A stretch of DNA of 64,000 nucleotides from a virus (IMGVR_UViG_3300035703_000034:32001-96000); one strand, 5' to 3'. Counted from the first letter of the stretch, positions 3,556 through 47,986 are shown. The notes: a model not told the origin generated them from the letters alone. Translations and numbers: made by a program.

Positions 3556-4635
3556 TCAGACGTGGTGGAAGCGCGTCATCTTCCAGAGCCGCTGCCAGAG
3601 CAGCACCGTCAAGCGATCGTTGAGCTCGAAGCGATCGGCGTGACCGCCGCGCAGCCACACCGCCGGCAACGCACCGAGCGAATTATATGCCCAGTCGACG
3701 AGATCACACCCGCCGCGCTGCTGGAGCCACCAGCCGGCAAACGCCTCCGGCAGCGCCGGCAGCGGCACCGGCGCCCCGTCGCGGGGGTGAACGACGAGCT
3801 GCTGCGCGTGCCGCACCTCGGCCACGGCCTCGGCGAGCGCGGCGTCGAGCTGTCCGATAAACGCCCCCTGCTCGTCCCAGCCCTCCGGCACGGGCACCAG
3901 CCAGCTGCGCAGCGGCACGCCGAGCTCCTTCTCCAGCCACTGCAGCAGGGCCACCTGCTCGAGCGGCGGCAGCACCGACAGCAGGCTGCGCACCTCGCTG
4001 GCGATCGCCTCGCGGGAGCGGGTGCTCTTGAGCAGCGCCACGATGCGCTTGGCGATGTCCGCCTGGACCCGCTCGTCCGGCGCGACGACGTGGAAGCCCT
4101 CCGCCACCAGCTGCGCCATGTGCACGAGCCACGTCACGTCGTCGCTCGCCAGGCGCACCTGCCGCGTGCTGAAGGTCAGGCGCCGCAGCGTCTCGGGGCA
4201 CAGCTGCAGGCAGGCGACCGCCGCCGGGTCGGTGCAGACGCGCCACTCGTCGTCCGTGAGCACGACAAACGGTCGCTTGACGTCGAGCCGGTGGCCGCCG
4301 AACAGCCCCGTGCGGTGATCGCGATCCCGCCCGCGGCCGTACACGTACGCGCGCCCCGGCCCGAGGTGCGTGTCGCTCTCGAGCTCCCGGACCGTCGCGA
4401 AGCCGGGGACATGGCGGCTCGTGTAGGGGAACACCAGCCCGCTCGTGTCCGGCAGGCGCGCGAAGAAGCGCGCCGAGCATGCGCGCTCAAACGTGCCCTT
4501 GCTCGGGTAGAAGCCCAGCCCCAGCTGCGCGCGATCGGGCACGGTGACGAGCTGGTCGAGCGCGAGGGCGAGCGCCTCGTCGCGCGCCGCCTCGAGCCAG
4601 GGGCCGAGGTCCTTGACCTTGGGGTCAGCCGGCAT
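3556..4635 (-). CDS. Hypothetical protein, possibly a degenerate DnaG/TOPRIM-like fold
   Basis: LGFYP, LVFPY, GLFG, FVVLTDD segments loosely recall the primase core; weak. Confidence 0.35.
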   Translation of the reverse strand: MPADPKVKDLGPWLEAARDEALALALDQLVTVPDRAQLGLGFYPSKGTFERACSARFFARLPDTSGLVFPYTSRHVPGFATVRELESDTHLGPGRAYVYGRGRDRDHRTGLFGGHRLDVKRPFVVLTDDEWRVCTDPAAVACLQLCPETLRRLTFSTRQVRLASDDVTWLVHMAQLVAEGFHVVAPDERVQADIAKRIVALLKSTRSREAIASEVRSLLSVLPPLEQVALLQWLEKELGVPLRSWLVPVPEGWDEQGAFIGQLDAALAEAVAEVRHAQQLVVHPRDGAPVPLPALPEAFAGWWLQQRGGCDLVDWAYNSLGALPAVWLRGGHADRFELNDRLTVLLWQRLWKMTRFHHV

Positions 4636-5302
4636 GGAACTGGTGCAGCGTCAGCTTCGGGTCGATCGGCGGGGCCTGGTGCAGCGCCTGGCGCCGGGCC
4701 TCCATCAGGTAGTGGGCGCGGTGCGCGCCCTCCGCGAGCTGCCCGAGGCTCGCGCCGGCCGTCATGGCGTAGACGGGCGTGTGCGGACCGAAGCGCTGGC
4801 GCATCGCGATGCCGAGCGCCGCCCCGGCCAGCGCCCCGCCCCAGGTGCCGGGGTGGACCGTGACGAGGAACGGGTTCTCGTTGACGTAGCGGCGCTCCAG
4901 CGCGTGGTCCGCGAAGGCGCCCGACACCGGCGGCGTGACGGCGATGAACTCGAGCGGGACGTTGCTGGCCTGCTTCTGCTGCCCGATCAGGTGGTAGTAG
5001 CGGTGCAGGCCCTCGAGCCCCATGCCCGTCGCCAGGCCCACGCCCATGCCCACCAGCGGGTGGCCGCCCGCCAGCTGGCCGAGGCCGGCGCCTACCAGCC
5101 CGCCGCCGTACGCGACCGGGTGCAGCATGCTCATCACCGGGTGCTTGGTCTGGTAGTCGGCCTCGAGCCGATCGTCGTGAAACCGCTCGCCCGGCATGTG
5201 CCAGTCCGTGATCCAGGCCGCCTCCGGCATGGCGCTGGCGAGCTTTGAAAGCGCCGGGTGGATAATCGAAGTGGAAGGTCCAGGACGCATGGCAGGCATC
5301 AT
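4625..5302 (-). CDS. Glycine-zipper protein with KxA motifs
   Basis: KLAS and KQAS each precede a unit containing HP...GGxLxGAxLG. Confidence 0.6.
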   Translation of the reverse strand: MMPAMRPGPSTSIIHPALSKLASAMPEAAWITDWHMPGERFHDDRLEADYQTKHPVMSMLHPVAYGGGLVGAGLGQLAGGHPLVGMGVGLATGMGLEGLHRYYHLIGQQKQASNVPLEFIAVTPPVSGAFADHALERRYVNENPFLVTVHPGTWGGALAGAALGIAMRQRFGPHTPVYAMTAGASLGQLAEGAHRAHYLMEARRQALHQAPPIDPKLTLHQFHAG

Positions 5303-5690
5303 TTCTTTGGAAACCTCGGTCTCGCTGGCGGCCGGCTACGGCCGCATGACGGCGTCGGTGCGGGACGCGGACGACGTGCTGCTCGCCGAGCAGCATGGCC
5401 CCACCTCGACCAACCCACTCTTATCATCCCTCGAAGCCGCCGTTTGGGGCCTGCAGCTCGTGGCCCGCCGCGGCGACACGGAGGTCGTCCACTGGGTCGA
5501 CAGCCAGGCGCTTGCCGATCGCCTGTCGCGCGCGCCGCGGCCGGGCGATCAGGGCGGCGAGCTGGTGAACGCTTACCGATCGCTGGCCGGTCGGATCGGG
5601 CGCGTGCGCGTGCTGAAGCGCCCGCATGCGGGGTTGCAGGATTTTGTCGCCCGCAAGGCCGCCGAGTCGGTCGACGGGGTGGTTGGCTAG
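5289..5690 (+). CDS. RNase HI-like fold protein, catalytic site degenerate
   Basis: STN...LEAAVWGLQLVARRGDTEVVHWVDSQALAD matches the RNase HI TNNxAEyxAl..GL...v.v..DSqlv pattern; the N-terminal DG motif is absent. Confidence 0.55.
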   Translation: MAGIISLETSVSLAAGYGRMTASVRDADDVLLAEQHGPTSTNPLLSSLEAAVWGLQLVARRGDTEVVHWVDSQALADRLSRAPRPGDQGGELVNAYRSLAGRIGRVRVLKRPHAGLQDFVARKAAESVDGVVG

Positions 5691-5830: not shown

Positions 5831-7395
5831 TAGCGCATCCCGCCCGTCTGCGCGAGGTGCAGCAGCATGTTGGCGTAGACGCATGTGTGCATGAAGTCGT
5901 CGGGGCTGTCCTCGGGGTGGTCGTACTTGAACTTGTCGTTGTTGTTGCGGTCGTCCAGGCGCTCCTCGAAGATGCACAGGATGTCCGAGGCGTAGTGGCG
6001 GAACTGGTTCCACTCCGGGAACCAGAACTGCTTCCTGCGCATCTTCACGAACGTCTCCGTCATCGCCTGCGTGCGGTTCGTCTTGTAGATCTGGGCCTTG
6101 TCGTCCCAGCGCACCATCTCGTGCTGCTCGCTCACGTACATGAACCGCTGGACCGGCCGCCGCAGCTTCTGCTCGAGCAGCCGGCTCTGCGCCACGCCCG
6201 CGCCCCAGTCGGCCCCCACCATGTCGACGGTGAACATCGTGCAGTACGACGCGATCTCGTCGACCTGCTTGAGCACGTCCGGCTCCAGGAACCGCTTGGC
6301 GAAGATGAGCCGCAGCCGGTTATCGACCGTCAAGCCGAAGATCGAGAGCACGGTGTAGCTGCGGCGGGCCGTCAGCCCCCAGTCGATGCCCGCCATCAGG
6401 AAGTGGTACTGCATGTCGTCGGGGATGAGCTGCTCCATCAGCTGGTAGCCGGGGTCGCAGCAGGCCTTGAGGTCGTCCTCCGAGAGCAACGTGACGCCGG
6501 AGCCCGCCGACACGCCCATCACCTCGTTCAGGAACGTGTTCGGGTCGCTGCCGCCGTGGTACTTGCGCAGGATCTCCTGCCACTTGCCCGCGTCCTCCGT
6601 GTGCATCGGCAGCACGATTTGCGGGATGCGGAAGCCCGACCAGGCCTTGTCCGCGTGCCCGGCCGTCGCGTACCAGCGCCCCTGCCGGACGTCGCACACG
6701 GCCTTGCACGACTTGCACGTGAAGCCCCGATCGCCGATGTTGTCGGTGGACGGCAGGTTCCAGTGGCCGCTCGGGCACGGCACCACCCACTCGCACATCG
6801 TGCTCTTGCGCCAGGTCTCCTCCAGCGTGTTGCCGACCGTCTTGGCCGTGCCCGTGCGCATGACGAACTGCTTGGCGGAGGGCTGACCCGACATGACCTC
6901 CTCGATGATCGCCAGCTCATCGCCGACCATGTCCTGAATTTCGTCCTCGAAGACCCGGTTGGCGGACAGGCCGCGCAGGCTCTCCAGCTGCGAGGTCGCG
7001 CCGAAGTACATCACCGAGCCGTTGATAAACGATCGCTCACCGGTGTTGCGGCGGCAGTGGCTGTCGACGAACCAGCGCCGGATCTCCGGGCTGTCGTTGA
7101 TGAAGCTCGCCACACGCTGGTTGCTGAAGCGGCGCGACTGGATCAAAGACGGGTGGACCGTCAGGCTCTCCCAGTACGGCTCTCCGATGCCCTCGGAAAC
7201 CCCGAAAGCCGCAACAGCGGTCGATTTCGCGACTTGTCGGCCCGACAACACGACGATCTTGCGGCTGTCGATCTCGTAGATCGTCTGCCACGGTGGGTAG
7301 CTGTCGAGCGAGAAGGGTTTGCCCCGCAGCTGGAGCGTCCGCTCCGCGATGGTGCGTCGGTCCGTCTCGATGTGAATTTTCGATCCGGTTTCCAT
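5827..7395 (-). CDS. terL: Terminase large subunit
   Basis: Walker A region VVLSGRQVAKST, Walker B VFEDEIQD, TGT coupling motif, Zn finger, nuclease GIDWG and C-terminal PDDFMH. Confidence 0.9.
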   Translation of the reverse strand: METGSKIHIETDRRTIAERTLQLRGKPFSLDSYPPWQTIYEIDSRKIVVLSGRQVAKSTAVAAFGVSEGIGEPYWESLTVHPSLIQSRRFSNQRVASFINDSPEIRRWFVDSHCRRNTGERSFINGSVMYFGATSQLESLRGLSANRVFEDEIQDMVGDELAIIEEVMSGQPSAKQFVMRTGTAKTVGNTLEETWRKSTMCEWVVPCPSGHWNLPSTDNIGDRGFTCKSCKAVCDVRQGRWYATAGHADKAWSGFRIPQIVLPMHTEDAGKWQEILRKYHGGSDPNTFLNEVMGVSAGSGVTLLSEDDLKACCDPGYQLMEQLIPDDMQYHFLMAGIDWGLTARRSYTVLSIFGLTVDNRLRLIFAKRFLEPDVLKQVDEIASYCTMFTVDMVGADWGAGVAQSRLLEQKLRRPVQRFMYVSEQHEMVRWDDKAQIYKTNRTQAMTETFVKMRRKQFWFPEWNQFRHYASDILCIFEERLDDRNNNDKFKYDHPEDSPDDFMHTCVYANMLLHLAQTGGMRY

Positions 7396-7906: not shown

Positions 7907-8683
7907 ATGGATCGCAAACCGCAGCTGATGGCCGAGGCCGCCCAGCTCGTCGAGCGGCACCGCGCCGACGGCGGCAACCTGAACGAGCTGATCGCCAAGC
8001 ACGCCAACGACCAGGGCTACAGCGAGCAGCTCTGCAGCAGCCTCGTGTGGTGCGTCAACCGCCAGAGCTTCAAGCAAGCCATGGCGCTCGACCAGCACGA
8101 CGAGCCGTCGATTGCCGACCCCGTCGCCGTCAAGCGCGCCCGCACGCGACCGGTCGCCGCCAGCGCCGAGCCTGTCAAGCAGGCGTCTACCGCCTGGTTG
8201 CCGACCGTCAAGCGCGCCAACAGCCGGATGCAGGGCGGCATGGTCCACACCCGCGCCGAGGGCCCCGATCACGGGCCGGCGCTGCGCGCGCACCTGGACC
8301 GTGAAAAGCGGGCGGCGGACACGGGGCTCAAGCTCGCGAGCGCCCGGACGCGCATCACGCTCGAGGACATGCACCACCAGACCCGGCTCATCAAGCAAAT
8401 TGGGCTCGACAAGCAGGCGAGCTTTCAGCAGCAGCTCGCCGCGTGCGAGCCGCCGGTGCGCGCGCTGCTCGGTGCGCTGCTGGAGAAGTCCGCGTACCAG
8501 CCGACGCTGCACACCCGCCAGGACCTCACTTTGCTGGTGCCGGCGGCGCTCAACGACTTCGACCGGTTGAAGCAGGCGGCAGACAGCATCGTGCGCGTCG
8601 GCGACGCGGCGGCCGCGCTCGAGGAGCTCAAGGTCACCCTGGCCCAGGATCGCGAGGCGGTCTCGGGCGTTGTGAGGTTCTAA
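7907..8683 (+). CDS. Head-associated protein rich in KxA motifs
   Basis: KQAM, KQAS, KRAN, KRAA, KLAS, KQAS, KSAY, KQAA. Confidence 0.6.
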   Translation: MDRKPQLMAEAAQLVERHRADGGNLNELIAKHANDQGYSEQLCSSLVWCVNRQSFKQAMALDQHDEPSIADPVAVKRARTRPVAASAEPVKQASTAWLPTVKRANSRMQGGMVHTRAEGPDHGPALRAHLDREKRAADTGLKLASARTRITLEDMHHQTRLIKQIGLDKQASFQQQLAACEPPVRALLGALLEKSAYQPTLHTRQDLTLLVPAALNDFDRLKQAADSIVRVGDAAAALEELKVTLAQDREAVSGVVRF

Positions 8684-9193: not shown

Positions 9194-10423
9194 ATGTCGA
9201 ACACTGCATGGGATATGTACCAGGCCATGATGAAGCAGTCCGCTGACGCCCTGGTGCCGGGCCAGGTGGGCATGGGGATGACCCCGGGGGTCACGGGCAT
9301 GCTGGACTCGGACCCGATGACGGCCAGCAACTCGGCCATCGCGGCCCAGCGCGCGGCGATGCAAGAAGCCGCCCTGCTCCACGCCAACGCCGACGCCGGC
9401 GCCGGCTACTCGACGCCCGCTCCTGGCACGAGCCCCTCGCTCCAGATGGCCGCGGACGTCAAGGCCGCATCCGTCGTCGACGAGGCCATCAAGTTCGCCG
9501 AGCACGTGTACCTGATGAACAAGCAGGCCGTAGCTTACGTGGAGGGGCCGACCGGCGCGGCCGCCGCGGACGTCGAGGCGGTTCTGCAAAACCGTGCGTT
9601 CTCGCGTCTCGGGGCGGATTACAAGTTTGAGCCCAAGGGCATGATGGCTCAGCTCAAGGCTGCTCCCGGCGCTTGGCTCGAAATGGCCAAGGGTAACCGC
9701 GGCCTGGGGCGGCAAGCGATGGCCATCGGCGGGCCGCTCGCGGCCGTGGGCGCACTCGGCTACGGTGGTTACCATATGATGCAGCCGCCGGCGCCCGAGA
9801 TGCTGCCTCCGGCGCCCGAGATGGAGCCGAAGGCCGCCTTCCAGCTGCCGTTCACCAACTACCACCTCGTGCACCGTCCCACGATGGGTCAGCGCGTGGA
9901 TCGCGCCGTCGAGTTCATGCGGGCCCAGGCGCAGAAGGTCAACAACCCGGCGGGCTACGTCGCGATGGGCGCCACCGGTCTCGCAGGCGCTGCGGGCGGA
10001 GCCTACATGATGGATCCTGAGATGGCGGCGATGAAGTCGGCCGCGGACACGGTGGTCTACGCCAACATGCTGAAGCGCGCGGCTGAGGAAGACGCCGCCG
10101 CGGCTGCGGCAGATGCCGCCAAGCCGGGCTTCATCGACAAGGCCAAGGGGTACTTGAACAGGGGCGTCAACGCGTACGACACGTTCTCGGCCGCGCACCC
10201 CCGCATGGTGCCTGCGGGCGCGCTCGCAGTCGGTGGTGCCGCCGGCTTCGGCGCGGCCCACTACATGGCCCACCAGGCGCAGCTCGCCCAGCAGGCGGCG
10301 GCGGCCGAGCAGGGCCTCGCGGCCCCGCAGAACGAGGCGATGGCCTACATGAAGGCCGCCGCGCTCAACGAGGCGGCCAACGCGGGTCAGCTGATGGCGC
10401 TCCGCCAGCTCGGCCTCGCCTGA
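9194..10423 (+). CDS. Ala/Gly/Met-rich putative internal head polyprotein
   Basis: AGGAGG SD; three glycine-zipper helices separated by KxA sites. Confidence 0.65.
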   Translation: MSNTAWDMYQAMMKQSADALVPGQVGMGMTPGVTGMLDSDPMTASNSAIAAQRAAMQEAALLHANADAGAGYSTPAPGTSPSLQMAADVKAASVVDEAIKFAEHVYLMNKQAVAYVEGPTGAAAADVEAVLQNRAFSRLGADYKFEPKGMMAQLKAAPGAWLEMAKGNRGLGRQAMAIGGPLAAVGALGYGGYHMMQPPAPEMLPPAPEMEPKAAFQLPFTNYHLVHRPTMGQRVDRAVEFMRAQAQKVNNPAGYVAMGATGLAGAAGGAYMMDPEMAAMKSAADTVVYANMLKRAAEEDAAAAAADAAKPGFIDKAKGYLNRGVNAYDTFSAAHPRMVPAGALAVGGAAGFGAAHYMAHQAQLAQQAAAAEQGLAAPQNEAMAYMKAAALNEAANAGQLMALRQLGLA

Positions 10424-39553: not shown

Positions 39554-40060
39554 TCAGGCCCCCGCGAAGGCCGGCGGGCCCGTCTCGGTCGCGGCCGTTG
39601 CGACGCTGTGCGTGTGCGTGCCGAGCTTCTCGACCAGCGGCGCGAGCTCGGCCATGCGCGTCTCGAGCGCCGTCAGGCGCGTGTCGACGCCCGGCGCGAG
39701 GGCGCTGAGCGTGGTCGACAGCCAGGTGGTGAAGGTCTCGACGACGTCGACCTGCGCCATCTCCACGGTGCGGCTCGCCCCCTCCGCCGCCCCCTTGGCG
39801 GCCAGGGCGGCCAGGCCTTCCCACAGGGCCTTGGGGTAGACCACGTCGAGCGCGTCGTTGAGCGCGAAGGTGCCCGTGACCGTGACGGTCTGCCCGGCCA
39901 GGCTCGCGCCCGCGTGCACCTTGCCATTGTGCAAGACGAGCAGCTGGGACGCCTGCTCGGGCACGTACGGCAGCTCGACCGTGAGGCCCCCGGTCTGGCT
40001 CGCGCCGACGCGGGTGCGTGCGATCATCAGCTGGCTCTTGACCTGGTCGACGAGTCCCAT
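39554..40060 (-). CDS. Spike-associated protein with C-terminal HxH
   Basis: Ends ...GTHTHSVA...TGPP. Confidence 0.5.
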   Translation of the reverse strand: MGLVDQVKSQLMIARTRVGASQTGGLTVELPYVPEQASQLLVLHNGKVHAGASLAGQTVTVTGTFALNDALDVVYPKALWEGLAALAAKGAAEGASRTVEMAQVDVVETFTTWLSTTLSALAPGVDTRLTALETRMAELAPLVEKLGTHTHSVATAATETGPPAFAGA

Positions 40061-42471: not shown

Positions 42472-43944
42472 ATGGCGGTCACGGAAACGATTCTTCAGCA
42501 GGCGGAGACCTTCATCGTCACCGCCATCACCGAGGCCTTCGCGGCCGAGGGCGACAGCATTGACCTGCGGCCGGGCACGCCGCAGTACGACCTGTTTGTG
42601 CGCGGCTTCCTCGCCGTGGTCGCGCAGATCGTCGACCAGCTGCAGCAGGCCCAGCGCAAGGTGACGGCGCTGTCGGCCACGGAGCTGACGGACGCGGAGC
42701 TCGCGGCGCTCGGGGCGCGCTTCGGCGTGAGCCGGCGCGTGGGCGCGACCGCCCAGGGCACGGTGCGCGTGAAGTTCCGCGAGCGGGTGGCCGTCACGCT
42801 GACGACGAGCGACGCCTTTCTGGCCGGGGACCAGACCTACTACCCGACCGAGGACGTCGCGCTGCTGGCCGACGAGCTGACGCAAGAACCTGTCTTGAAC
42901 TACTGGTACGTCAACGTGCCGCTGATGGCGGCCACCAACGGGACGGCCAGCAACACGGGGGCCGGCACGGCCTTCACGTGCGCCAAGCTCGCGGGCGACC
43001 CCGCGCTCATCGAGGCGGTGGCGATCACGCCGCTGTCGGGCGGCCTGGACCAGGAGGACGCGACGGCCTACTTCGACCGGTTGCAGGCCGCCCCCTTGAT
43101 CCGAAACCTGGTGAGCCGCAAGTCGATCGACGCGGTGCTGATGGGCGAGTTCGCGGGCGTCATCGAGCGGCTGCTGGTGGTGGGCTACCAGGAGCCCGAG
43201 ATGCAGCGCGATCGCCTCGAGGTCGTCGACCCCGTGCTCGGCCCGATGACCATGCACGTGGGCGGGCACACGGACATCTACGTCAAGACGCCCATCCGGC
43301 GCGAGACGGTGGAGTTCACGGTCTCGCCCGGCAACTACGTGATCGACCTCACGGACTACCGCGCGGTGCTGAAGGTCCACAACGTGACCCTCAAGGGGAA
43401 CGGCGACGTCAGCCCGTACTTCGAGCTGCGCGTGGCCGACCCGGCGCTGCGCTACTCGGCACTCGACACCGTGCAGCTGTTCGTCGACCCCGGCCTCTCC
43501 GAGGAGACCATCCAGGTCGACCTCTCGTACGCGCCGGACGTCGTGAGCATCCATGCGTACGTCAACGGCGACGAGCAGCGCATCACGAACGCCAACACGC
43601 TCGTGCGCCACTTCGTGCCCGTCTGGCTCGGGGCCGTCATCTACGTGGCGGGCGACGACGCCGCGATCGCGCAGGCGAACGGCAACATCGCGGCCTACCT
43701 GGACGGCCTCGCCAACGGCGCGCCCGTCGTCGTCAGCAAGCTGACGGAGGCCATCTACCAGGGCGGGGCGCTGAACGTGCTGCAGGACTACGACCTCATC
43801 GCCCAGATCATCTACAACGACGGCACGTTGCTCGAGCGCACGGCGGACGAGGTGCTGACGATTGCGGACGACCTGCCCAAGGGCTTCTCGCAGCGGGTGG
43901 CGACCTACCTGAACGAGGGCGTGACCCTCGTGCAGCTGGGGTAG
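42472..43944 (+). CDS. Baseplate J-like protein
   Basis: R..GATAQGTV, GTASN, GGLDQED..YFDR motifs; follows the gp25-like gene. Confidence 0.8.
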   Translation: MAVTETILQQAETFIVTAITEAFAAEGDSIDLRPGTPQYDLFVRGFLAVVAQIVDQLQQAQRKVTALSATELTDAELAALGARFGVSRRVGATAQGTVRVKFRERVAVTLTTSDAFLAGDQTYYPTEDVALLADELTQEPVLNYWYVNVPLMAATNGTASNTGAGTAFTCAKLAGDPALIEAVAITPLSGGLDQEDATAYFDRLQAAPLIRNLVSRKSIDAVLMGEFAGVIERLLVVGYQEPEMQRDRLEVVDPVLGPMTMHVGGHTDIYVKTPIRRETVEFTVSPGNYVIDLTDYRAVLKVHNVTLKGNGDVSPYFELRVADPALRYSALDTVQLFVDPGLSEETIQVDLSYAPDVVSIHAYVNGDEQRITNANTLVRHFVPVWLGAVIYVAGDDAAIAQANGNIAAYLDGLANGAPVVVSKLTEAIYQGGALNVLQDYDLIAQIIYNDGTLLERTADEVLTIADDLPKGFSQRVATYLNEGVTLVQLG

Positions 43945-43948
43945 GCCC

Positions 43949-44329
43949 ATGCGCGACTACCTGGCCGTCCAGCACGCGCGCGAGAAAGACGGCGCCCCGC
44001 CCGGCGAGTACCTCGCCACCTACGAGCGGATGGGGCGCGCCAAAGGCGATCGCCTGCAGCGGACCCTCGTGCTGACGGACGTGACCACGCCCGCGGGCGA
44101 CCCGGTGACGGACCACGTCTGGCTCATCCACACGAAGGAGTGGCAGGGTGTGGCGCCGGGGTCGCGGGTGCGCTTCACGGCCCCCGCCCATGCCTACTTC
44201 AAGGACCGTGGCCGGGGGCTGATGGGCCGGGTGCCCAACCGGGAGATGGACTACGGCTTCTCCCGGCCCCTGGAAGTCAAGGCTGCCAGCGCGTATCAGG
44301 CCTATCTGGCCTGGGTCGGAGGCTACTAA
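43949..44329 (+). CDS. Hypothetical protein
   Basis: 126-aa ORF with good codon bias. Confidence 0.6.
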   Translation: MRDYLAVQHAREKDGAPPGEYLATYERMGRAKGDRLQRTLVLTDVTTPAGDPVTDHVWLIHTKEWQGVAPGSRVRFTAPAHAYFKDRGRGLMGRVPNREMDYGFSRPLEVKAASAYQAYLAWVGGY

Positions 44330-44330
44330 A

Positions 44331-44750
44331 ATGAACCCCTATTTCGCCTATATATCTATGAAGGCCGCTTCTGACTTTTCAGACGCGCTGGACCTTTACG
44401 TGGTGGCCCACGACGCCCCGCTGAGCGAGCACATGCGCGCCCAGAACCGGGGCTACATCCCGCTGCACATGCTGAAGGACAAGGGGCGCGACAGTCACCT
44501 CGTCTACGTGCACCGGATGAGCTACAACCCGGCGATGCACCTGAAGTCGGCCGACCCAGCAAAGTTCCACGCCCTGGTGCGCACGCACCTGGGCGGCCCC
44601 CCGGTCGTCGTGCCCGCCGCCCCGGCGGCCCTCCCCCCACCCCCCGGGGTGGGGGTGGCCCCGGGTGGGCAGACCGCTGTGGCGGTCCCCCCGGTGCCCG
44701 TGAAGCCGGTGGTTCCGGTTGCACCCCCTCCCCCGGGGGTGGGGGGCTAA
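44331..44750 (+). CDS. Small protein with KxA leader and Pro-rich tail
   Basis: Begins MNPYFAYISMKAAS; GGAGG SD. Confidence 0.55.
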   Translation: MNPYFAYISMKAASDFSDALDLYVVAHDAPLSEHMRAQNRGYIPLHMLKDKGRDSHLVYVHRMSYNPAMHLKSADPAKFHALVRTHLGGPPVVVPAAPAALPPPPGVGVAPGGQTAVAVPPVPVKPVVPVAPPPPGVGG

Positions 44751-44780
44751 AAAAGACCCCCGAAACCCCTATATATACTT

Positions 44781-45342
44781 GACCCCCACATTAGCCCTTG
44801 AACAAAGGCTGGTGTGGGGTTCTTGGTTTGAGTCGGGCCTGCAGCCCGGCGTCCGTGGAAACGGAAGGCTCGCTGTGCGAGGCCGGCGAGGGTGCCATAC
44901 GGACGGCACCCGTTGACCCGGTCTTTCAGAGTTAAGGGGAACCTCGCCACTGTTTGGTCAGGCGAGGCTGCGAGAATGACCACCCCACCGTCCCGGCTTT
45001 GGGACGTTAAGCGGATACGCGACCGCGAAGGCCTGTCCCCTCGGGGGCAGAAGACTGGCATTCCCGAACCGGCCCCACGGATGGGTGGGCCGGCTGCCAG
45101 ACACATCTAGGGAGCTGCCGGGGTTTCCCGGCCCATGTCCCGCAAGCGACCACCTCTCCGTGGTGCGGGATAGTAACGTGCGGAGCGCTCCGCACGGCTG
45201 ACGGTCGCAAGCCCCTATCGCGTGGGCAGTACGCGAGAGGTCTGGTCACGTGGACAGGCATCACGTGACGAACCCGACGCAGGGGTTGCCTGCGCACGTT
45301 CCCCACCCGCCCCCGGTCCGCTCTTGCGGCCGGGGGCTTTTT
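44781..45342 (+). ncRNA. Putative large structured non-coding RNA (~560 nt)
   Basis: No convincing ORF; well over a dozen consecutive hairpins with G-U pairs on +, two candidate pseudoknots, TATACT upstream, terminator at the end. Confidence 0.6.
45309..45342 (+). terminator. Intrinsic terminator
   Basis: GCCCCCGG...CCGGGGGC followed by TTTTT. Confidence 0.7.
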
Positions 45343-45367
45343 GCGGTTCCGACCGCAGGAGGTTCAA

Positions 45368-45586
45368 ATGGACGGGCTTCAACTGCAAAAGGAACTGGAA
45401 GAGTTCGCCGAAGGACACGCCCAGCTCGAATTTGCAATTAACAAGATCAAGATCGGTTACAACGAGCAGCGCCTTCTGGCGCGACTCGACGCCGAGCAGG
45501 CGGCGACCGAGGCCGCCGGCGAGGCCGGGCGGCTGGAGTGCCGCTTGGCCGGCGGCCGCGTGGCCCCGGCCCCTCTGGCGGACTGA
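45368..45586 (+). CDS. Small coiled-coil hypothetical protein
   Basis: AGGAGG SD before ATG 45368. Confidence 0.55.
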   Translation: MDGLQLQKELEEFAEGHAQLEFAINKIKIGYNEQRLLARLDAEQAATEAAGEAGRLECRLAGGRVAPAPLAD

Positions 45587-45697
45587 AGTCCGCCAGAGGC
45601 CCGCTCCGCAGAAGGAAAACTGCGTAACAAACCCGCCCCAGCCGGGCGTGACCGGGGACCCGCAAGGGCGAGACCGGAGGCGCGTTGGTATCAAAAA

Positions 45698-45758
45698 CTG
45701 ACATCCAGGCTGCGTTAGCCTGCTGATGATGGCCCCGTCGCGGGGGCCGAAATGTCAG
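45698..45758 (+). ncRNA. Type III hammerhead ribozyme
   Basis: CUGACAUC / stem I CAGGC-GCCUG / CUGAUGA / stem II GGCCCC-GGGGCC / GAAA UGUCAG; full core and three stems; predicted cut after C45705. Confidence 0.9.
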
Positions 45759-45815
45759 AAGTCTCGTGCTGTTTCGACGGCACGCAGAGGGCTGAAGGCC
45801 CGGGGAGAAAAGACC

Positions 45816-46175
45816 GTGAAGACCACGAATCGAGCGGAAGACCTGTACCAGGCGGGACAGTATCTGGGAACGATCACTGTCGTCGAGGGCAAGGAGGTAA
45901 TCCTCCAGCCCTGGACCTACCGCCTCCGCTACGGCGGGGGCAAGCACGAGATCTCGTACGCCGTGAAGCGGGAGACAATTCCCGTCCTCCGGTGGGACGG
46001 CGACGTCATCGGGCGCAAGCCCACGGGCGTCGTGCAGGGGGTCTACCCCTTCGGGCCAGACTACGTCTCGGGCGGCCGGGCCCGTCTAGAGGAGCTCCTG
46101 GCGGCCCCCGAGACCCACGACCAGGAGTGCTACTGCCACTTGCACAAGGGCGCGGAGCGCTTGCTGAGGGTCTAG
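45816..46175 (+). CDS. Hypothetical early protein
   Basis: GGAG SD, GTG 45816. Confidence 0.6.
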   Translation: MKTTNRAEDLYQAGQYLGTITVVEGKEVILQPWTYRLRYGGGKHEISYAVKRETIPVLRWDGDVIGRKPTGVVQGVYPFGPDYVSGGRARLEELLAAPETHDQECYCHLHKGAERLLRV

Positions 46176-47303: not shown

Positions 47304-47395
47304 CACCCTCCAAGGTGGGACGTGTTTGTTTCACATCTCTTCACTCCATTGCGAGTGATCAGATGTGAAGCAGACGCGTCCCACCTTGGAGGGTG
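47304..47395 (+). repeat. 35-bp inverted repeat (long RNA hairpin)
   Basis: Arms 47304-47338 and 47361-47395 differ at only three positions, all giving U-G pairs on +. Confidence 0.9.
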
Positions 47396-47479
47396 TGGAT
47401 TACCGTTGCTTTTCCTTTAGCCCCGCTGAGCGTTCAGCCGGGGCGCAGTTGCCGTTCCGACGGCAGAAAGGAGTCCGAC

Positions 47480-47986
47480 GTGGACATCCTCCAGAACAAC
47501 CCCACCACCTGGTCCAAGTGGACCTCGGTCGTCCTGACCACCGGCGTGCCGGGCGCCGGCAAAAGCACCCTCGCCGCCCGGCTCGTGGCCGAGTTCGGCT
47601 ACGAGCAGCTGGAGCTCGACGAGCTCCGGGCCGAGCTCGGCGACCGGGCCGACCAGTCCCTCACCCCGGCCGCCGTCGCGCTGCGCGACGAGCGGCTCGC
47701 GGCGGCCATCGCGGCGGGTCGCAAGGTCGTCGTGAGCGACACCAACGCCCACTTCCCGTTCCGGGTGGCGCTCATCCGGGACATCCTCAGTCTCGGCGTC
47801 CCGGCGGACGAGATCGCCATCGTCCACTTCAACGCGGACGTGGACGAGGCCAAGCGCCGCAACCGGGGGCGCGCCAGCGAGGTGCCCGAGGCGGTCATCG
47901 ACCGGATGGCCGCGGCGCTCGAGGCCGCGCAGCCCTCGCTGGACGCGGAGCTCTACGGGCTCCAGTACCACGAGACGGAGCTCTAA
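47480..47986 (+). CDS. Polynucleotide 5'-kinase-like P-loop protein (T4 PNK kinase domain / AAA_33)
   Basis: VVLTTGVPGAGKST, LDELR, VVVSDTN, RRNRGR, VPEAVIDRM. Confidence 0.75.
   Translation: MDILQNNPTTWSKWTSVVLTTGVPGAGKSTLAARLVAEFGYEQLELDELRAELGDRADQSLTPAAVALRDERLAAAIAAGRKVVVSDTNAHFPFRVALIRDILSLGVPADEIAIVHFNADVDEAKRRNRGRASEVPEAVIDRMAAALEAAQPSLDAELYGLQYHETEL

Follow-up and report, generated by a model that had tools for sequence, protein, structure and literature searches.

The stretch of DNA analysed here, which is referred to as the window, is 64,000 nucleotides long and was taken from an IMG/VR virus record of 106 kb (G000), where it spans bases 32001-96000; unless noted, positions are counted from the first base of the window. 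The record has a G+C content of ~68% and was determined by CheckV to be 51% complete, and its complete relatives are 203-208 kb in length with terminal repeats. The source phage belongs to a GC-rich environmental lineage of the jumbo type with a genome of roughly 200 kb and 68% G+C. On the plus strand, the gene encoding baseplate J (42472-43944) is followed by two small ORFs (43949-44329 and 44331-44750), an AT-rich box with the sequence TATATATA(C/G)TTGA (44770-44782), and a hairpin-rich gap (44781-45342). The next cistron is a 72-aa ORF with a Shine-Dalgarno sequence (45368-45586), whose GC1/GC2/GC3 pattern fits coding and which matches no family in Pfam or PHROG. Further small plus-strand genes follow, and then a polynucleotide-kinase-like ATPase of the AAA_33/PNK type (47393-47986). 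None of the flanking small proteins matched a Pfam family.

The nearest baseplate relatives by identity are P0002 (78%) and P0003-P0005 (~55%). Using P0002 as a query against IMG/VR returned the known loci and nothing further, and a metagenome scan with a baseplate profile found no nearer relative. A single-protein search of IMG/VR and a strict 22-nt pattern gave no matches, nor did blastn of the region against a phage collection. A relative with a counterpart of the gap is IMGVR_UViG_3300047564_004815 (G001, locus L003). The two small ORFs that precede the gap in the window are the N- and C-terminal halves of a single 233-aa protein in this relative (L003:7479-8180, 37-40% identity), and the gene next to baseplate J is either split in the window or fused in L003. 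The second of the two ORFs (44331-44750) has a proline-rich C-terminal tail that lies over GC-rich palindromes.

The gap itself is non-coding. Between 44751 and 45367 the coding GC3 signal is absent in every frame of both strands, and natural variants carry 1-nt indels inside the gap; small ORFs within it were ruled out on these two grounds. The 562 nt of the plus strand fold with an MFE of -291.6 kcal/mol (z -4.96), and 0 of 100 shuffles folded as well, which agrees with the original prediction that the gap is almost fully tiled by hairpins. Since z is about -5 for the gap and -1.5 to +0.9 for six coding windows of the same length from the record, the hairpin richness is real. It had also been proposed that many of these hairpins contain G-U pairs that work only on the plus strand. 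The minus strand folds equally well (-290.0 kcal/mol, z -5.54) and the MFE structure of each strand contains 16 G-U pairs, so there is no asymmetry between the strands in this respect.

Three segments can be distinguished in the gap. The first is a hairpin-rich leader of 356 nt (44781-45136, +; z -3.22) that has no coding signal. The second (45137-45208, +) is the ribozyme described below. The third begins with three trailer hairpins (45209-45304, +), which are absent in the relatives (z -3.91 for 45209-45368), and ends with an intrinsic-terminator-like hairpin of 12 pairs and one bulge followed by five U (45309-45342, +), as identified by a terminator scan and the predicted fold. The original prediction had placed the gap between a TATACT box at 44774-44779 and a terminator; the positions are right, with the hairpin at 45309-45337 followed by the five U. 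One natural variant, 45322 U>G, falls in the loop of the terminator-like hairpin.

The segment 45137-45208 is an HDV-like ribozyme related to the drz-Fpra and theta ribozymes, a known class of RNA, with cleavage predicted from the sequence. Its five helices (P1, P2, P3, P4 and P1.1) occur in the canonical order and form a nested double pseudoknot. P1 consists of 7 bp (45137-43 with 45165-71) and opens with a G-U pair (G45137-U45171). It is separated by a 2-nt J1/2 from P2, which is a perfect 6-bp helix (45146-51 with 45203-08) and forms a pseudoknot that lies outside the scoring of the Rfam model. P3 has 3 bp (45152-54 with 45162-64, ACC with GGU) and closes the 7-nt loop L3 (45155-61, UCUCCGU). 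The 2-bp P1.1 is formed between L3 and the two bases after P1 (45172-73 with 45156-57), and P4 (45177-96) is a full 8-bp hairpin. J4/2 (45197-45202, GCUGAC) contains the predicted catalytic C at 45198, the equivalent of C75, which is followed by N-R-A. L3 has U in the first and G in the sixth position, an observation that is independent only in the window copy, as these positions are fixed by the search pattern elsewhere. In HDV, U20 and G25 form a metal-binding reverse wobble. The predicted cut site lies at 45136/45137, directly 5' of G45137. A natural variant, 45200 G>A, keeps the purine in J4/2 and produces the same J4/2 as in L003.

When 44600-45900 was scanned against Rfam at permissive settings, a single match stood out, the family RF02682 (HDV-F-prausnitzii), with a score of 30.6 bits that lies below the gathering cut-off of 44. 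The E-value is 0.002 over 1.3 kb, or 3.8e-5 when the single family is searched against the whole 106-kb record, in which this match is the only one. A structure descriptor that requires P1, P2, P3, P1.1 and C-N-R-A, and leaves P4 free, found a single site on both strands of the record, at 45137. Applied to 105 simulated strands that matched the record in length and dinucleotide composition, the descriptor found 3 sites with a 5-bp P2 and 0 with a 6-bp P2. The original prediction had seen in the gap a new or diverged class of ncRNA in which no tmRNA, RNase P or intron signature could be recognised. The second part is borne out, as no such match was obtained at the gathering threshold in the window or at E<=10 in 44600-45900. 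The first part does not hold: RF02682 matches best, although below its cut-off, and the ribozyme has all the structural hallmarks, so that in substance the region contains a known RNA.

Comparison with other phages supports this assignment. BLAST of 44751-45760 against the records of five relatives gave one significant match, which is 72 nt long with 82% identity, covers exactly the ribozyme, and lies at L003. Baseplate J is 50% identical between the two phages, the gene before the gap in L003 is homologous to the ORFs at 43949-44750, as described above, and the distance from baseplate J to the ribozyme is ~1.07 kb in L003 and 1.19 kb in the window. Because of this homologous upstream gene and the similar distance, the position of the ribozyme in L003 is orthologous. 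A scan of IMG/VR with a pattern identified a third copy on an unrelated contig (L025), and a covariance model built from the window copy scored L003 at 71 bits and L025 at 58 bits. Across these three sequences, each of the 75 pair cells holds a standard pair. Two-sided changes occur in 6 pairs (2 each in P1, P1.1 and P4), compared to 0-1 in controls with slid partners.

A looser pattern in which P1 and P2 were left free, along with extra copies found by the model in two contigs, extended the set to 16 copies on 13 IMG/VR contigs. In this set, P1 pairs 2-5 show 3-5 pair types and are paired in 15-16 of the 16 copies, and P2 pairs 1-5 show 3-4 pair types and are paired in 14-16. The first P1 pair is G-U in 8 copies and G-C in 4, and J4/2 reads C-N-R-A in all 16. 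P3, L3, parts of P1 and, partly, P2 were fixed by the pattern, and therefore their invariance or near-invariance is no evidence. All 16 copies score below the gathering threshold of every HDV family in Rfam. An Rfam search at E<=1 of the loci of the five relatives (51 kb) gave no match, the L003 copy being found instead by BLAST and our own model. Neither G002 (74% complete) nor any of the complete relatives G003-G007 contained a ribozyme according to the single-sequence model; the descriptors gave no site in the entire G002 record or at the examined loci of the other relatives. Because the model finds no copy in the complete relatives, the ribozyme is accessory. A pattern scan of genome contigs gave at least 120 matches, mostly from Actinomycetota; these are attributed to chance or to coding sequence because the model accepts none as a ribozyme, and they were set aside.

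The positions of the 16 copies point to a role. A start codon (ATG or GTG opening an ORF) lies 11-44 nt after the ribozyme in 13 of them, at a distance of 26 nt or less in 12 of these, and 8 of the 13 start codons have a recognisable Shine-Dalgarno sequence. For L003 and L025 the distance is 19-20 nt. In 7 of the 16, an ORF on the same strand ends 19-41 nt upstream of the ribozyme. L170 (+) contains three copies within 1.9 kb (5012-5080, 5532-5597 and 6829-6898), each 11-15 nt before an ORF-opening ATG, and L180 (-) contains two (8457-8510 and 9394-9444); these tandem copies look like ribozyme-punctuated operons. Since start codons are near 13 of the 16 copies and an upstream gene ends close to 7, the most likely role of the family, as judged from its placement, would be the cleavage of leader or polycistronic phage transcripts immediately upstream of a cistron. 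For the window, this role is taken from the relatives because its next ORF is 160 nt away and behind the terminator-like hairpin. The window copy is an atypical member of the family, with a long structured leader before it and three hairpins and a terminator-like hairpin after it.

Two members have distinctive surroundings. On L186 (-), a copy nearly without P4 (~4490-4541) lies 5 nt or less from the 3' end of a tRNA (4546-4623, -). The contig is an AT-rich phage contig with a tmRNA and five tRNAs, and the arrangement is that of the theta ribozymes. On the unrelated contig, from record G008, the ribozyme heads a gene for a 410-aa protein (L031:248-1480, -) that has no Pfam match and stands opposite a divergently transcribed small ORF, which by eye is a possible helix-turn-helix regulator.

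We consider it probable that the gap is a non-coding, hairpin-rich leader or intergenic RNA of the plus strand whose functional core is the HDV-like ribozyme at 45137-45208. The sequence, the hallmarks of the fold, the conservation, the covariation and the gene context are shown here; from these we infer that it is transcribed and cleaved, with possible effects on stability or translation. The ribozyme, once transcribed, would fold into the nested double pseudoknot, in which, with C45198 and a bound metal ion, the 2'-OH of U45136 would attack the next phosphate. By the chemistry established for the HDV class, the upstream product ends in a 2',3'-cyclic phosphate and the downstream product begins with a 5'-OH. 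With a transcription start at the AT-rich box, the 5' piece would measure 356 nt; it would end in a 2',3'-cyclic phosphate, and the 3' piece would carry its 5'-OH on the folded ribozyme. The downstream message would in this way gain a defined and structured 5'-OH end and be uncoupled from the RNA upstream.

The leader raises a different possibility, that the product of interest is the upstream piece and that the ribozyme makes the 3' end of a stable 356-nt phage ncRNA, with a hairpin at its 5' end and another, bearing the cyclic phosphate, at its 3' end. The theta ribozymes trim phage tRNAs likewise, and the L186 copy, which abuts a tRNA, is theta-like. Outside the ribozyme, the window and L003 have in common only three features. 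The first is the AT-rich box, which occurs once in the 106-kb record and at L003:8311-8323; it does not fit the sigma-70 consensus and is possibly a promoter. The second is a strong hairpin at 44781-44822 (+), found in both the MFE and centroid folds, which is a putative 5'-terminal stem-loop and has a counterpart at the equivalent place in L003. The third is a hairpin with the stem CGUC.../...GACG followed by UUAA (44989-45010, +), a motif also found in the L003 leader and otherwise absent from the record; the 8-mer GACGTTAA is present once in G000 (45003) and twice in L003, where both occurrences (8398 and 8513) lie in the leader. In both phages (G000 and G001), moreover, the RNA upstream of the cut site ends in a hairpin. 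The box was rejected as a recurring promoter motif, as it occurs a single time in the record and is absent upstream of other family members.

Natural variation in the gap also bears on this possibility. Near-identical variants of it were found on short contigs from a freshwater and an estuary metagenome (DNA). The non-coding gap is 95-99% alike among them, whereas the start of the next ORF is sharply diverged. Substitutions fall at unpaired positions of the MFE structure in 9 of 13 cases, and 66% of the covered positions are paired (binomial P ~0.01); two further substitutions lie in a marginal 3-bp extension within a 12-nt loop. This pattern lends modest support to selection that may act on the hairpins. 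On the other side, no compensatory changes were seen in the leader hairpins of the natural variants, and 44864 G>A disrupts one predicted leader pair. The leaders differ in length (356 nt in the window vs ~200 nt in L003) and are not alignable, and no Rfam family, tRNA or tmRNA (ARAGORN) was found in the leader of the window. Many members of the family, in addition, leave no room for an ncRNA, as they begin only 19-41 nt after the preceding gene. We judge a ribozyme that serves to form the 3' end of a stable RNA to be unlikely, though it should be kept in view.

A second ribozyme-type motif is present further downstream. A descriptor identified a type III hammerhead-like motif at 45698-45758 (+) in which the core is complete, with CUGAUGA, GAAA and an AUC cleavage triplet. 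Its stems have 7, 6 and 7 pairs, there is an extra U after A9, and the predicted cut is after C45705. This is the only site found by the descriptor in the record, and 123 simulated strands gave 0 hits; the Rfam hammerhead models did not match 45698-45758 at E<=10. A GTG with a Shine-Dalgarno sequence follows the motif after 57 nt, at 45816. Two candidate ribozymes ahead of two successive genes would fit with message processing. It is quite improbable, in our estimate, that the 356-nt ncRNA with its AT-rich promoter box and hairpin-UUAA motif, the hammerhead-like motif and the PNK-type kinase together constitute an RNA-end-processing module.

According to the original prediction, the whole of the ~560 nt would be one large ncRNA of a new class, held together by a long-range stem and two H-type pseudoknots. 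The elements named are present in the sequence. The complementarity for the pseudoknots is found between 44955-44960 and 44977-44982 and between 44995-45000 and 45028-45033, and 44936-44942 is complementary over 7 nt to 45298-45304, a long-range stem that is part of the centroid fold. The fold z of ~-5 and the natural variants, which spare most stems, are likewise in its favour. Among the variants, 44960 A>C would lose one pair of the first possible pseudoknot, and 44998 U>C would change a G-U to a G-C pair in the second. A self-cleaving ribozyme in the middle of the unit, however, would split such an RNA in two, and the minus strand is equally foldable with the same number of G-U pairs. In addition, L003 lacks the trailer and the terminator and its leader cannot be aligned, and there is no comparable syntenic gap after the baseplate genes in G002 (L004; 74% complete) or in the complete relatives G003 and G004 (L005 and L006). 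What stands of the proposed RNA element is a structured non-coding region; conservation between phages and covariation are confined to the 72-nt ribozyme, which is the only part that aligns with the nearest relative, and the conserved ~560-nt architecture is not borne out. The region resembles GOLLD and ROOL in being a long, highly structured phage RNA, but nothing supports a new class of that type; there is no Rfam match to them at the thresholds used, and the 560-nt unit is unconserved even in the nearest relative. We judge a single large ncRNA to be very unlikely.

The hammerhead-like motif could also be read as the partner of the HDV-like ribozyme. The two would excise a 569-nt RNA containing the 72-aa ORF, the ends of which would be healed, sealed or circularised with the help of the PNK-like kinase acting on the 5'-OH. 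The motifs share the plus strand, are separated by 569 nt and enclose a single small ORF; the kinase of the AAA_33/polynucleotide-kinase type is encoded 1.7 kb downstream; and prophage hammerheads that flank single genes are known (Perreault et al., PMC3088659). The terminator-like hairpin, however, lies between the two motifs, and the 106-kb record, which is about half of the genome, encodes no RtcB or RNA-ligase domain. The second motif lacks an Rfam hammerhead match, and the published work on prophage hammerheads detected no circular or spliced products (PMC3088659). Excision of this kind is very improbable.

Finally, a DNA-level element such as a replication origin or a packaging or recombination site, in which the box is an unwinding element and the inverted repeats form in DNA, might be suspected from the equal folding of both strands, the uniqueness of the AT-rich box in a 68%-GC record and a local turning point in the cumulative GC skew at ~44-46 kb, but it is almost certainly not the explanation, as the ribozyme is specific to one strand and its covariation is that of an RNA, the region lacks iterons and tandem repeats, and the genes around it form a run on the plus strand.

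The HDV-like ribozyme as the core of a leader or intergenic RNA can be compared with several known systems. HDV-like ribozymes have already been described in phages (PMC10879173, PMC13635239), including one from the Ackermannviridae that was crystallised and is active (PMC13635239). The closest systems include drz-Fpra-1, which is located upstream of glmM (PMC6765202), and the bacterial and metagenomic HDV-like variants of Weinberg et al. 2015, as these are cited in PMC13635239. With drz-Fpra-1/RF02682 the window copy shares the double pseudoknot, a 7-bp P1 starting from G-U, a 3-bp P3, the U...CGU of L3, an A/G-G P1.1, a full P4, a J4/2 of the form C-U-R-A and a position upstream of a gene. 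It differs in its score, which is below the cut-off, in its origin from a GC-rich environmental phage rather than a gut Firmicute, and in the 560-nt structured gap around it. The theta ribozymes are minimal HDV-like ribozymes that adjoin the tRNAs of gut Caudoviricetes and have been reported only from mammalian-gut phages (PMC10879173). They are similarly phage-borne and HDV-like and define RNA ends in cis, as is predicted here, and the L186 copy is close to them in its minimal P4 and its proximity to a tRNA. In contrast, ARAGORN found no tRNA or tmRNA in the window, the window copy has the full 8-bp P4, and most family members precede start codons.

In position, the family resembles the phage hammerheads. 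The hammerhead HHphage of the haloviruses HF1 and HF2 lies 13 nt before a start codon, and the 5' end of the transcript was mapped at the cut (PMC3088659). In both cases a self-cleaving ribozyme is found a few nt before a start codon, and several flank single genes, but the hammerhead is a distinct class of ribozyme in both fold and chemistry. The RNAs of the R2 and L1Tc retrotransposons also carry HDV-like ribozymes at their 5' ends (PMC6765202, PMC3185411). There, as proposed here, the ribozyme heads the message, releases it from RNA co-transcribed upstream and is retained at its 5' end; those are eukaryotic retroelements for which IRES-like roles have been proposed, whereas no reverse transcriptase or mobile element was seen at this locus.

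The roles of bacterial and phage self-cleaving ribozymes are largely unknown (PMC6765202). What is new here is the ribozyme copy and a small sequence family, the HDV-like class itself being already known. With this locus, a GC-rich environmental phage lineage with genomes of roughly 200 kb joins the known sources of HDV-like ribozymes, and the regular placement of the family supports the view that phages use such ribozymes to cut messages right before a cistron. The 16 copies provide a concrete set of sequences for studying whether the cut alters mRNA stability or translation.

Several additional observations were made in and around the gap. A 14-nt direct repeat (86%) of the P2/P3/L3 segment 45148-45161 is present in the leader at 44978-44991, with no matching P1 or P3 partners, and may be a remnant or a decoy. 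Two stretches of 20-24 nt are 75-80% complementary to ribozyme strands: 45069-45088 to 45150-45169 (P3/L3/P1) and 45290-45313 to 45162-45185 (P1/P4). The latter overlaps the 5' arm of the terminator-like hairpin. Through alternative pairing, these stretches could link the folding of the ribozyme to termination; they could also be due to chance in a GC-rich region with many palindromes. In the estuary variant (X4 contig 26), the trailer is ~96% identical over 45242-45364 and diverges sharply from 45365, where a diverged homologous ORF start follows in which the frame and the first residues are still recognisable. Either the 72-aa ORF is fast-evolving and the gap is better conserved, or there is a mosaic junction at the gene start. 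An AT-rich motif resembling TGATAAT(T) recurs between genes at positions 39868, 49185 and 49705 of the record (7868, 17185 and 17705 of the window); it may be the general promoter element of the phage, distinct from the unique TATATATA box at 44770.
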